NCBI GenBank assembly: GCA_964463965.1
Contig: CAYXED010000009.1
Span: forward strand, 479 to 64,478
Direction of reading: 5' to 3'
Source of the DNA: an uncultured Nitrospiraceae bacterium
GTDB lineage: Bacteria > Nitrospirota > Nitrospiria > Nitrospirales > UBA2166
DNA length: 64,000 nt
The translations under genes were made by a program, and so were the position numbers. The notes below the pieces were generated by a model, which was given only the letters and a program-made list of their open reading frames with translations, ran no database searches and was not told the origin of the DNA. Position 1 is the stretch's first letter. Each line of letters opens with the position of its first letter. Below, one piece after another: positions 2,752-25,687 of this stretch.

Positions 2752-5046
2752 TTAGGGGAGTACGACAATTGCTGGGACCACGTGATGTATGGGAATGCCT
2801 GTCATGCTGACGGGTGAGGTCGAACAGGTATCGTTCACATTGACCTCACTGACAAATCGTATCGTACGCGCATTATTGGTGTGCCACGTGGTGTTGTAGA
2901 TACTGGACCCACTGCTTTTGGTACAACGATAGGGAGTGCTACGTAGGCCGCCAAGTCGTCGAAGTTTTCGGGCTTCTGCCTCACAGGCTTGATCTCCCAA
3001 GATGGTCACTTGATTGACCGACGGAGTGGTGTGGCTTGACCCTTGATTCACGTATCCCTCTGTCCCTGCGATAATGTCGCAGCGTACTTCATATTCATTG
3101 CCGTGGATAAAGTCGATGGGGGTGGCGAGTGCAAAGGTGTAGGAGTCTCCAGCATTGAGGAGGGGACTCGCGGCCGTTCGCCCTCTAATAGATTCCGTGG
3201 CAAGGATGGTGGGGCTGCTACCAGGATTGGTACGGATGACCGAAATCCTCGCATCCGCATCGTTGACGGGCTGTGTGCCCCAATTCGTAATCGTGCAGCT
3301 TGGAGTGATGTTCCCTGTCGGACCTCTCAGAATGGTTTCCGGGAGCACATTGGCATCGGTGGCAACATTCCAGGGACCGACTGTGGGGTCCCACCACGTT
3401 CGTAGTGGCTGGCAGGTGCCATAGGTGTCGGCGATGCGTGTGACAGCAAGATTATTGACCGCACTATGCTGCAGGCTGCTATCGGAGAAGTTGGTGGCAC
3501 TGGGGAGGGGGTTCTCTGCAATCTCTGCAAGGCGTGCATAGGCAGGAAAATCGTCGCGTGTCAGTGAGCCGATATGGCGTTCCGCACGGTAGGTATCCCA
3601 GTGCTCGATAGGTTCTCCGTCACTACCGTATAGGACTCCAGTGTTACCATCTTCATAGACACGAAGATGTTCCAACAAAAATGAGACTGCTCCGGTGCCA
3701 ATCCAAGTCCATGCTCCTAAACCTCCAGGAGACGGGCCACGACTTCGTCCTTGCCGAGAAAAGTTTCTAGTATCACACGCATAGCTGTCATGGTAGGGCG
3801 CATAGTGGCGTGATCCCCCGCGTTCGAGCTCTGAGAGTTTGGCTAAATTGTATGGGTAGATGCCGTCATCGCGTCCGATGTGCTGGGCAAAATCGGTTAG
3901 CCCCCAGTTGACGCTGGTGTTATATCCAGTGCCATTCCACGTGTATTGGCTAAAGTGGCCTGTCCATCCCCAGTTATCTCCGGTTTTCCATGCTGTCGCT
4001 CCAGGGCGTACGGATGGTGTTCCATTGGTCCAGACCGCTTGAGTCCTCCGACAGGAGGGGTCTGTTGTGCCTGTGATGCCTGTTCTCCATCCGTGACCAT
4101 TCATGAGAATGGCGGGTTGGGCTAAAGTCAGGGTATTTATGATAGCGAGGGTTTCTGATTGTGAAATAGGCCATGGGCCGGTGCGATCACCATTCCCTCG
4201 ACAGGAAATGCTGCCAGTACCAGTAGTGGTGTTGAGGCTCCAGGTAACAGGGAGGTCGCGGTTGAGATTGACGGCGTTGGCATTGCATCGCCAGCCACCT
4301 TCACCATTCAGGCCAAATCCATCGAGATTGACGACCGGGAGCACCCAGAGTTGGCGTTTTTTGAGGAGTTGCCGATATTTTAAGGTGGCTCCAGGATAAA
4401 GACGTGTGTTCGGTTTTGTGAGCACGTGGTCGATCCAGTCAAGTAATGCTCGTGTGGAAGATGATTCGTTACCATGTTGTGATCCAACGAATAGGGCAGA
4501 AGAGCGTTCATGTATGGGTGTGCGCCCGTCAGGACTCGCGAGTCGTAGGGCATAAATAATTTGCCCCTGAACCGTTCGGCCAACAGCAAAACGGGTCACT
4601 TCTTCAAAGCGATCCGCATAGTATCTGATAATGCGATTGATGCATTGCGGGGTCGGTAAAAAATACGTCCCACTTTCGCTCTCAACAGCGCTGCGCCATT
4701 GGTCGTAGCAGTCTGTTTCCGCGGATGATTCTGTGCCGAATGACAAGCCGACAGGGGCACCTTCCTTGACAGGTTTGGGAAGATGTGTGGGTGGGACAGT
4801 CGAGCGTACAGGGTCATCAGCTTGTATCTCCCGTTCGAGCTTTTCCAATGCATCTGAGGCGCGTTGCCGCACCGCATCATGTTCGTCGGTGATAAGGCGC
4901 ATGTGGGTAATGTGTGTATTTGGGGCATTGGATGAAGGGGTGACGTTGCTTTGCGCGAGGACACTGGCACTGATTGCTAGGACAATGGGCAGAATGAGCC
5001 CACTGATGATTGGCTGACGTAGTTTATGGTGGTGTGGGTGCCACAT
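2752..5046 (-). CDS. Secreted M14 zinc carboxypeptidase with C-terminal Ig/CARDB-like domain
   Basis: Signal peptide; VGRTVQG, GSQHGNE (HxxE), VLPVVNLDG, RCNANAVNLNRD, LMNGH and FLLE. Confidence 0.85.
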   Translation of the reverse strand: MWHPHHHKLRQPIISGLILPIVLAISASVLAQSNVTPSSNAPNTHITHMRLITDEHDAVRQRASDALEKLEREIQADDPVRSTVPPTHLPKPVKEGAPVGLSFGTESSAETDCYDQWRSAVESESGTYFLPTPQCINRIIRYYADRFEEVTRFAVGRTVQGQIIYALRLASPDGRTPIHERSSALFVGSQHGNESSSTRALLDWIDHVLTKPNTRLYPGATLKYRQLLKKRQLWVLPVVNLDGFGLNGEGGWRCNANAVNLNRDLPVTWSLNTTTGTGSISCRGNGDRTGPWPISQSETLAIINTLTLAQPAILMNGHGWRTGITGTTDPSCRRTQAVWTNGTPSVRPGATAWKTGDNWGWTGHFSQYTWNGTGYNTSVNWGLTDFAQHIGRDDGIYPYNLAKLSELERGGSRHYAPYHDSYACDTRNFSRQGRSRGPSPGGLGAWTWIGTGAVSFLLEHLRVYEDGNTGVLYGSDGEPIEHWDTYRAERHIGSLTRDDFPAYARLAEIAENPLPSATNFSDSSLQHSAVNNLAVTRIADTYGTCQPLRTWWDPTVGPWNVATDANVLPETILRGPTGNITPSCTITNWGTQPVNDADARISVIRTNPGSSPTILATESIRGRTAASPLLNAGDSYTFALATPIDFIHGNEYEVRCDIIAGTEGYVNQGSSHTTPSVNQVTILGDQACEAEARKLRRLGGLRSTPYRCTKSSGSSIYNTTWHTNNARTIRFVSEVNVNDTCSTSPVSMTGIPIHHVVPAIVVLP

Positions 5047-5103
5047 CGTGTTTTGTAATTTTGTGGTGCCGTTATGTCGTTAGTCAATCTTGAAAAGGTA
5101 TGC

Positions 5104-25121: not shown

Positions 25122-25126
25122 AAAAC

Positions 25127-25687
25127 ATGTCATTTGTGGAAAGACGACTGACAATTATGAGAAATATATTTGTATGGATGCGAGGGTGTGTGATGCTGTT
25201 GATTGTGTGTGGATTTTTAGGATCGACGGCATTGGCAGGGGTGCCTCCGACTGAGCCTCTTGATTGTACGGTCTATCAAAGTGAAAAGGAGAGCACCACA
25301 GTTGGGTTTAAGGTAGGCAATATGTTGTTTATGGCGGGTCCAGAGGTGACGAGGAGCCGCTCACGAGGGGTGGCATGGGACAAAGTTGTTCAGGGGCTGA
25401 TAGCTCGATATGTCGAATTATGTGCGTCGTACAATGCTGGGTTGGTTGCTCCTGATGAATATCGGCTTCGCCGTGAGGAGATTGAGCAATTTCATCAAGA
25501 AGCCAAAGCTTTGGAAGGACGGCTTATTAAAGAGACAAAATCAAGTGCAAATTCTGCTCAGGATGCTCTCGATCGTGAATTATCTCGTCGCTCATTTAGC
25601 TCTTCCAATGGCCCTTTGAGCGAGACAGAGTCTCTTGATGATGCTCTACAACAATTACTTAATAGCATCGGCCACGTGGAGCGTTGA
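25127..25687 (+). CDS. Secreted helical hypothetical protein
   Basis: Signal peptide ending in ALA, two Cys in the mature part, and TKSSANSAQDALDREL matching the locus-wide helix. Confidence 0.7.
   Translation: MSFVERRLTIMRNIFVWMRGCVMLLIVCGFLGSTALAGVPPTEPLDCTVYQSEKESTTVGFKVGNMLFMAGPEVTRSRSRGVAWDKVVQGLIARYVELCASYNAGLVAPDEYRLRREEIEQFHQEAKALEGRLIKETKSSANSAQDALDRELSRRSFSSSNGPLSETESLDDALQQLLNSIGHVER

Follow-up and report, generated by a model that had tools for sequence, protein, structure and literature searches.

Why should six exported proteins, encoded within 23 kb of a single Nitrospirales genome, carry the same 16-residue helix at quite different places in their chains? This is the question raised by a locus in the genome of an uncultured Nitrospiraceae bacterium (assembly GCA_964463965.1; 1,892,752 bases or 1.89 Mb in 18 contigs, 98% complete), which we studied in a stretch of 64,000 nucleotides of contig CAYXED010000009.1, hereafter the window. 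Positions 2752-25687 of the window form a run of genes for exported proteins, lying at a contig end. The pattern [VT][RK]xxAxxAxxxLxxE[LI], which an earlier inspection of the DNA had reported in six of them, indeed matches exactly six sites when the window is translated in all six frames, and a scan of the whole genome returned only those same six sites. Residue composition would lead one to expect 0.066 matches in the 3,785,432 six-frame residues, a figure that overstates the significance of the finding because the pattern was fitted after the fact. When the looser core AxxAxxxLxxE[LI] was used, eight matches were obtained in open reading frames (ORFs) of at least 40 amino acids (aa), six of the eight in the locus. 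The six proteins and their helix sites are:

2752-5046, minus strand: M14_764 (M14 below), a carboxypeptidase of 764 aa with an extra N-terminal module (Pfam Peptidase_M14, E 1.2e-15, residues 138-320); helix at 4825-4872
8444-10102, minus strand: p552, an exported orphan with the module at its N-terminus and no Pfam family; helix at 9866-9913
10756-11433, plus strand: LPP20a, a lipoprotein (Pfam LPP20, 35.4 bits; lipobox GLGC); helix at 11374-11421
11411-14434, plus strand: S1_1007, a trypsin-like protease with a putative LPP20-like remnant, the module and a TSP3-containing tail (Trypsin_2, E 1.2e-26; TSP_3); helix at 12902-12949
22897-23568, plus strand: LPP20b, a lipoprotein (Pfam LPP20, 39.0 bits; lipobox AVGC); helix at 23509-23556
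25127-25687, plus strand: p186, a cassette member with homologues in Nitrospirales; motif at 25535-25582, towards the end of a long helix

The helices of M14 and p552 had first been placed 1-2 nucleotides (nt) away from these positions, while the other sites agree.

Our best explanation, to which as a whole we would give a probability of about 0.4, combines an evolutionary account with a putative function. The locus is built from a duplicated and rearranged copy of a conserved Nitrospirales cassette composed of LPP20, p153, p193, an S1 protease, p186 and often a C14 protein, in which the LPP20 and p186 families each bear an amphipathic, highly charged helix with small alanines on a narrow hydrophobic stripe. 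A diverged copy of this helix, followed by a proline-rich spacer and the sequence PVKEGAPVG(RKPF), forms a module on S1_1007, p552 and M14. The helix might act as a handle for helix-helix association with a flexible proline leash behind it, through which the three hydrolases would join an envelope assembly of LPP20, p186 and S1 proteins, and the result could be a carboxypeptidase and other activities held beside an outer-membrane-anchored protease complex. The descriptive and evolutionary part of this explanation is very likely correct; the association function is a tentative step, with the odds somewhat against it.

The proteins had been described as unrelated to each other, a view that does not survive an all-against-all BLASTP comparison, in which they fall into three lineages: the LPP20 pair, p186, and a three-copy module carried by M14, p552 and S1_1007. 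Residues 13-100 of M14 and 13-104 of p552 are 46% identical, signal peptide included, and p552 matches S1_1007 in three blocks of 91, 51 and 19 aa, with identities of 43%, 75% and 63%, respectively. What the three hydrolases have in common is thus a duplicated module, 60-90 aa long and made up of the helix, the Pro-rich spacer and PVKEGAPVG(RKPF), with a mean column identity of 68% in the alignment of its copies. The tail (P/A)V(K/G)EG(A/E)(P/S)VG, reported to follow a Pro-rich spacer in three proteins, has just three occurrences genome-wide, 14-20 residues past the helix in M14, p552 and S1_1007, and the identity of 26 nt at 4748-4773 and 9792-9817 was confirmed as well. The elements concerned are:

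4729-4905, minus strand: module copy 1 (M14), with helix 4825-4872, Pro-rich spacer and PVKEGAPVG; shares the 26 nt with copy 2
9770-9946, minus strand: module copy 2 (p552), with helix 9866-9913, spacer and PVKEGAPVGRKPF; from pattern and alignment
12872-13054, plus strand: module copy 3 (S1_1007), with helix 12902-12949, spacer and AVGEGESVGRKPF; from pattern and alignment
9353-9505, minus strand: second block common to p552 and S1_1007, its other arm lying at 13073-13225 on the plus strand (inverted repeat I1, 153 nt, 73%)
12659-12820, plus strand: candidate degenerate second half of an LPP20-like domain, S1_1007 residues 417-470, or 417-521 with the helix region (by hhalign; weak without the helix)

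In S1_1007 the module is internal and lies just past this putative half-domain, whereas in p552 and M14 it comes right behind the signal peptide. The original prediction had the helix of two non-LPP20 proteins sitting just after the signal peptide, but the helix lies some 27-32 residues past the likely cleavage point between AQS and N, as read from the translations. The 51-aa block of p552 and S1_1007 (…W.KKLK.AEAKGD.EAIERLK.KLAGTYQGS…) is helical and matches no family, and recurring (R/K)(K/R/Q)PF motifs also connect these two proteins.

That the hydrolases could do without the module is seen in M14, two orthologues of which (P0144 and P0145, 55-57% identical) lack residues ~32-110: their signal peptide runs directly into GCYD(D/E)W, corresponding to residue ~112 of M14_764, and the catalytic body begins at a conserved CYD(D/Q)W. 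We considered that a lipid anchor of M14 (ISGC and NAGC in the orthologues) had been replaced by the module and set this aside, as M14_764 has retained both cysteines of CYD...C, in line with a disulfide, and signal peptidase I could equally well cleave at A-x-A/S. For p552, no homologue but itself was found among 5.8e9 clusters (lengths 303-966 aa), and residues 301-1007 of S1_1007 had none in 150 other Nitrospirales genomes.

LPP20a and LPP20b are paralogues, 69% identical by BLASTP, and both score above the gathering cut-off of 25.9 bits for Pfam LPP20 (PF02169); their lipobox cysteines were read from the translations, and C44 is invariant across 70 sequences. By Pfam score, lipobox and fold, they are true members of the LPP20 family. 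Among 105 homologues of LPP20b from outside the window, which according to the names given at their source come from Nitrospirota, the strict pattern was found in 45 and a family core, N[AS]xx[AL][HFYQ]xx[LM]xxE[LV], in 87, and in the family alignment (A2) positions N208, L216, E219 and L220 are each at least 90% conserved. An LPP20 with 89% identity (P0002) shows that public reads include a closer relative. At the level of sequence, the helix is supported as a genuine conserved end-piece of this Nitrospirota LPP20 subfamily. It lies about 30 residues past the end of the Pfam LPP20 domain, and in an AlphaFold2 (AF2) model of LPP20b with a predicted local distance difference test score (pLDDT) of 82.8 the terminal helix, residues 192-222, is at pLDDT 84-94; this model matches solved structures of Lpp20 and Tip-alpha, with 5ok8 at Foldseek E 3.1e-4 (TM score on the target 0.66) and 2wcr at E 2.8e-4. 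The genome encodes a third LPP20, on contig C5, in which the helix is present in a truncated form. In five LPP20 relatives the helix is internal and is followed by a linker and ~170 more residues; the C-terminal extensions of these long relatives gave no Pfam family in the four of five that were scanned, and no likeness to locus proteins. The statement that the helix terminates LPP20 domains holds for LPP20a and LPP20b, but not for two other proteins of the locus:

21342-22880, minus strand: a 512-aa protein with LPP20 and DUF4384 (Pfam), without the terminal helix motif (no pattern match)
23605-24066, plus strand: p153, an LPP20-like lipoprotein without the helix (LPP20 E 0.01, profile positions 1-90 of 97)

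The cassette is seen in genome G009, where LPP20, p153, p193, S1 and p186 are collinear, and in G027, which has the same order without p153. Its further counterparts in the window are:

10175-10756, plus strand: p193, a cassette member without Pfam family, 40-44% identical to its G009 and G027 counterparts
24093-25121, plus strand: S1_342, the cassette's trypsin-like protease (Trypsin_2, E 3.1e-29)
19928-21286, minus strand: a caspase-like C14 lipoprotein (Peptidase_C14, E 2.4e-16)

The counterparts of p193 stand between LPP20/p153 and S1 in those two genomes; p153 is 46% identical to the G009 cassette gene, and S1_342 is 40-47% identical to cassette proteases elsewhere. The window carries the cassette as two pieces, p193-LPP20a-S1_1007 and LPP20b-p153-S1_342-p186, and in the latter p186 follows S1_342 just as it follows S1 in G009 and G027. 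Within S1_342, a perfect 57-nt tandem duplication (24869-24982, plus strand) doubles a 19-residue linker stretch before the C-terminal helix, which hints at slippage in the very recent past or at an assembly feature. In G009 (locus L019, G009:C5:38000-57900) another LPP20 protein and a TPR protein stand ahead of the cassette, and immediately behind it comes a CHASE2 sensor-sigma-54 activator fusion (12648-15473, plus strand), which could be a dedicated cassette regulator; the flanks encode He_PIG/CarboxypepD_reg proteins.

A sample of 150 other Nitrospirales genomes contained homologues of p186, with 29-51% identity, in 19 cases. Residues D10, C11, W48, Y59, C63, G69 and Y76 are invariant between p186 and these 19 sequences, which have a conserved N-terminal LDC...ARYVELC.RYNAG. 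In 15 related loci of 2-3.5 kb each (L032, L042, L034 and L035 being outside this count), an S1 protease adjoins p186 or is fused to it in eight, p193 lies next to it in five, and LPP20 and C14 in three each. Fusions of S1 and p186, 524-591 aa long, account for 4 of the 19 homologues (L028 in G249, L029 in G443, L030 in G228 and L033 in G444), which argues that both proteins act together. The long helix of the family ends in (T/A)RxRA....(D/E)(L/M)D, and position 4 of the motif is arginine in all three hydrolases as well as in at least 90% of family members. Our AF2 model of p186 (pLDDT 79.2) has a 46-residue helix at positions 73-118 of the mature part, with the motif at its distal, less confident end (pLDDT falling from 88 to 64); a Foldseek search of the PDB with this model found no fold match (best E 0.41). 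Most full-length p186 C-termini (L025, L026, L028, L031, L032, L034, L035 and L042) end in EPIG(R/Q/K)PLxPxxPCxPPDMLGAPG…C, a tail with a faint likeness to the APVGRKPF of the module, which p186 of the window has lost, ending instead in …IGHVER.

Profile comparisons suggest a link among the three lineages. With window sequences excluded, the LPP20 and p186 family profiles align by hhalign with a score of 35.1 (P 3e-4, 73 columns) and their helices in register, against 20.0 for the reversed p186 alignment and at most 20.7 for 60 column shuffles. Within residues 301-548 of S1_1007, the alignment with the LPP20 profile takes in the helix and the latter half of the LPP20 domain (E 8.9e-5, probability 59.6; P 2e-4 in a re-run). 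The scores of this profile were 34.3 for S1_1007, 31.0 for p552, 25.8 for p186 and 20.6 for M14, all in one register, and among 292 random 130-aa segments, drawn from long ORFs on other contigs (mean 12.9, standard deviation 2.6), those reaching the same values numbered zero, zero, one and four, respectively. The p186 profile, in turn, aligns to the p552 helix and extends to EPIGR/APVGR (P 0.007). Another origin of S1_1007, as a diverged S1-p186 fusion, found no support, the p186 profile matching only the helix there (P 0.03). Judged by sequence comparison, the helix of the hydrolases likely shares its origin, or at least its type, with those of LPP20 and p186. The idea of a portable LPP20-type helix has thus gained support from the common register, the random-segment controls and the M14 orthologues without module, and portability is likewise indicated by the five LPP20 relatives in which the helix is internal.

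The module itself is private to this genome. A profile of its three copies (A1) retrieved, from 401 Nitrospirota genomes, just these copies and three weak matches (E 0.003-0.006), which were discarded: the ORF of L003 runs antisense to real genes, while L002 and L004 have the look of spurious frames, one of them interrupted by a stop. Nothing was found in 185,579 species genomes (367 pattern matches, none confirmed) or in metagenome contigs of the Joint Genome Institute (594 pattern matches, none confirmed), which leaves no signal for the co-occurrence with LPP20, S1, C14 and DUF4384 loci by which the original prediction was to be checked. In 1.84e9 protein representatives the profile had 36 matches, two of which are p552 and S1_1007 of the window; of the 34 others, 10 were scanned and all turned out to be HEAT_2/HEAT_PBS repeat proteins, where the match falls on the helix part. 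The literature searched, a limited paper collection, gave no description of the shared LPP20 terminal helix. The helix feature is real and undescribed, and its module form is confined to one genome.

The guanine-plus-cytosine content of the window's first 20 kb is 0.47-0.52 versus 0.41-0.45 in the genome's large contigs, or about 0.50 for the locus and about 0.43 for the genome; locus DNA in four genomes of the same genus (G401-G404, 73-96% complete, so that its absence may be only apparent) amounted to only three matches of 66-124 nt, and the sole LPP20 of these genomes is of the type found on contig C5. The locus is an accessory island where 5' gene ends were exchanged, probably one that was horizontally acquired or is fast-evolving. 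The module most likely spread by recombination within it, and the identity of PVKEGAPVG between M14 and p552, which extends to the nucleotide level, looks like recent conversion. The helix tells a different story: 11-12 of its 16 residues are identical between module copies, 6-8 of these being specified by different codons, while just 1-4 of the 10-11 residues ahead of it are identical. Residues kept despite diverged codons point to purifying selection and to a helix maintained at the protein level.

As to what could be maintained, the helix copies of the hydrolases have 8 of 16 residues charged and a hydrophobic moment of 1.6-1.9; those of LPP20a, LPP20b and p186 have 5-6 charged residues in 16, and all of them present one narrow V/A/A/L/L/L stripe (moment 1.0-1.9), in which A5, A8, L12 and L16, read by eye, have the a/d spacing of a heptad. 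A narrow hydrophobic stripe on a charged helix is the signature of helix-helix packing, not of membrane insertion. The helix is C-terminal in LPP20 and p186, internal in S1_1007 and the long LPP20 proteins, and near the N-terminus in M14 and p552, a spread that speaks for an association element working regardless of position and against a sorting signal at a chain end. A complex prediction of LPP20b residues 45-223 with the p552 module gave a score of 0.00 twice; its controls were unfolded and the partner had a pLDDT below 50, so that this result speaks neither for nor against association.

Several of our results weigh against a portable association handle derived from the LPP20 and p186 families. 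Because the module is private to one genome, it comes with no co-occurrence evidence, and its absence from the M14 orthologues and from all other genomes searched marks it as dispensable for the enzymes; absence from orthologues had been named beforehand as a sign against the idea, and for M14 this is what was found, in both orthologues. That the module profile otherwise matches HEAT-repeat proteins indicates that such Ala-core helices arise often. The confident terminal helix in the LPP20b model fits packing within its own domain and not a free handle. The LPP20-like remnant of S1_1007 reached only P 0.01 without the helix, had no Pfam match at E up to 10, and gave no usable match when residues 330-520 were searched against the ESM Atlas; moreover, the pairs submitted to hhalign had been picked beforehand for likeness. 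Genome-wide searches with the helix alone fell short of significance: a hidden Markov model (HMM) of the LPP20 helix only, built on 102 outside sequences, ranked p552 third among 19,626 ORFs with 8.7 bits and an independent E-value (i-E) of 1.6, M14 and S1_1007 falling outside the top 30; the corresponding p186 HMM, built on 17 outside sequences, ranked p552 second (i-E 1.7) and S1_1007 sixth (i-E 13), with M14 outside the top 15, and longer p186 HMMs recovered p186 alone. Within the p186 family, the strict pattern occurs in none of the 19 homologues, p186 of the window has serine at position 4 where the family has arginine, and p186 of G027 is without the helix stretch altogether.

Among the alternatives, the helix might be a structural or linker remnant, that is, the last helix of the LPP20 fold or a stiff spacer, carried along with signal peptide and Pro-rich linker in a swap of 5' gene ends inside the island; it would stabilise or space its own protein, with no binding in trans. 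The likeness of M14 and p552 includes the signal peptide, indicating that the whole 5' end was exchanged and not a tag alone, and the identity over 26 nt is what a recent gene conversion nearby would leave; the high pLDDT of the LPP20b terminal helix was obtained on a monomer, M14 orthologues do without the module, and the orphan status of p552 and of the S1_1007 extension is typical of genes in a fast-evolving island. A neutral passenger, however, would not be expected to keep its helix residues while synonymous sites and both flanks diverged, and M14 and p552 have, by Pfam, no LPP20 body on which the helix could pack. On balance we regard a remnant as rather unlikely.

Alternatively, the hydrolase helix could be unrelated to those of LPP20 and p186, all of them being generic charged Ala-core helices that arose by convergence, with the three-copy module as the sole true homology. 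Genome-wide E-values of about 1.6 for the helix HMMs would be in line with this, as would the 34 of 36 module-profile matches in 1.84e9 proteins that are not those of the window (all 10 scanned being HEAT_2/HEAT_PBS proteins) and the lack of the strict pattern in p186 homologues; but chance likeness would hardly explain why the best matches of HMMs built on outside sequences fall in the same 23-kb locus of 1.89 Mb, why the register is the same in all alignments, why the S1_1007 alignment extends upstream into the LPP20 body, or why the LPP20 and p186 family profiles score so far above their controls, and we consider convergence improbable. Equally improbable is a pro-segment or processing signal that would keep M14 and p552 latent or tethered until an S1 protease cuts a basic, proline-flanked stretch: two S1 proteases and an M14 enzyme do share the locus, the module of these enzymes lies between signal peptide and catalytic body where a pro-segment would be expected, and basic residues and (R/K)(K/R/Q)PF recur in p552 and S1_1007, but Pfam detected no Propep_M14 or other pro-domain family, R/K stand mostly before proline, which is generally poor for trypsin-like cleavage, and the C-terminal helix of LPP20 and p186 and the internal one of S1_1007 would be left unexplained.

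Comparison with known systems helps to place the proposed handle. Trypsin activates procarboxypeptidase by acting on the pro-segment of an M14 enzyme, and here too an M14 enzyme with an N-terminal extension is found beside trypsin-like proteases; unlike that case, the extension is a helix and proline spacer and not a globular Propep_M14, and orthologues exist without it. A second likeness is to the PBS-lyase HEAT-like repeats (PF03130/PF13646), whose motif is resembled by DExDxVRxRAxxALxxL, a stretch that starts ~5 residues ahead of the helix and covers the first two-thirds of it, and which share with it Ala-lined helix-helix packing. The module, however, is present in a single copy per protein with no tandem array, and Pfam gave no HEAT match on it (for p552, a threshold relaxed to E 10 brought up HEAT_EZ at residues 399-416 and nothing else), so the HEAT likeness is limited to the motif level.

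Cohesin-dockerin pairs assemble the cellulosome by docking hydrolases on a scaffold. The logic proposed for our locus is alike in that exported hydrolases of diverse kinds carry a short, portable element set off by a flexible linker, with a candidate scaffold anchored to the cell; it differs in that the element is one amphipathic helix of ~16-30 residues instead of a duplicated Ca-binding fold, and in that the putative scaffold would be an LPP20 lipoprotein of a diderm. Neither Cohesin nor Dockerin families were detected in the 19 locus proteins (Pfam, E <= 0.01). For LPP20 itself, the LPP20b model matches Helicobacter pylori Lpp20 (HP1456), Tip-alpha (HP0596) and HP1454 with Foldseek E-values from 2.8e-4 to 2e-2. 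According to a review (PMC7999756), H. pylori releases Lpp20 in vesicles along with HP1454 and HP1457, which are encoded in the same operon, a precedent for LPP20-type lipoproteins acting with operon partners; the H. pylori proteins differ from LPP20b in their low identity to it (16-20%) and in an operon without S1 protease or p186.

Other genes of the region include, within the locus, a 1002-aa protein without family, an InlB-B-repeat protein, and the following:

5104-8517, minus strand: a 1137-aa exported repeat protein (weak Reprolysin_3 match, E 0.007; HExxH)

In this protein 13 copies of a ~55-aa repeat (165-nt period, WEDDRDxNGxYxI) flank a central segment that contains MHELGHSLSLKHGG; it resembles a zinc metalloprotease armed with repeats, without clear family membership. 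Upstream of the locus, a 114-aa ORF (1912-2256, minus strand) weakly matches the C-terminal half of the type VI secretion system Hcp model (E 4.9e-5, profile positions 69-129 of 129) and is possibly a gene fragment, and a 382-aa lipoprotein (676-1824, minus strand) of no Pfam family contains a 30/60-nt repeat (1602-1721) encoding an N/A/P/T-rich linker.

If the helix were merely a remnant, the locus would document an exchange of 5' ends, signal peptide plus linker, among exported genes in one island. In its most far-reaching form, which we hold to be unlikely, our explanation would describe an outer-membrane-anchored proteolytic assembly of LPP20, p186 and S1 proteins joined by a common Ala-core helix, with helix and leash as a transferable tag recruiting extra hydrolases, namely a carboxypeptidase, an orphan protein and a giant protease; a diderm nitrifier might then have its own analogue of cohesin-dockerin, built on helices. 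If the helix is an association handle, it would be a very small natural tag, usable at the N-terminus, internally or at the C-terminus, for assembling periplasmic or surface enzymes. It would also give a first functional foothold on the conserved envelope cassette (LPP20, S1 protease, p186, C14 and DUF4384) of nitrite-oxidising Nitrospirales, and on LPP20, a widespread family of unclear cellular role beyond Helicobacter.

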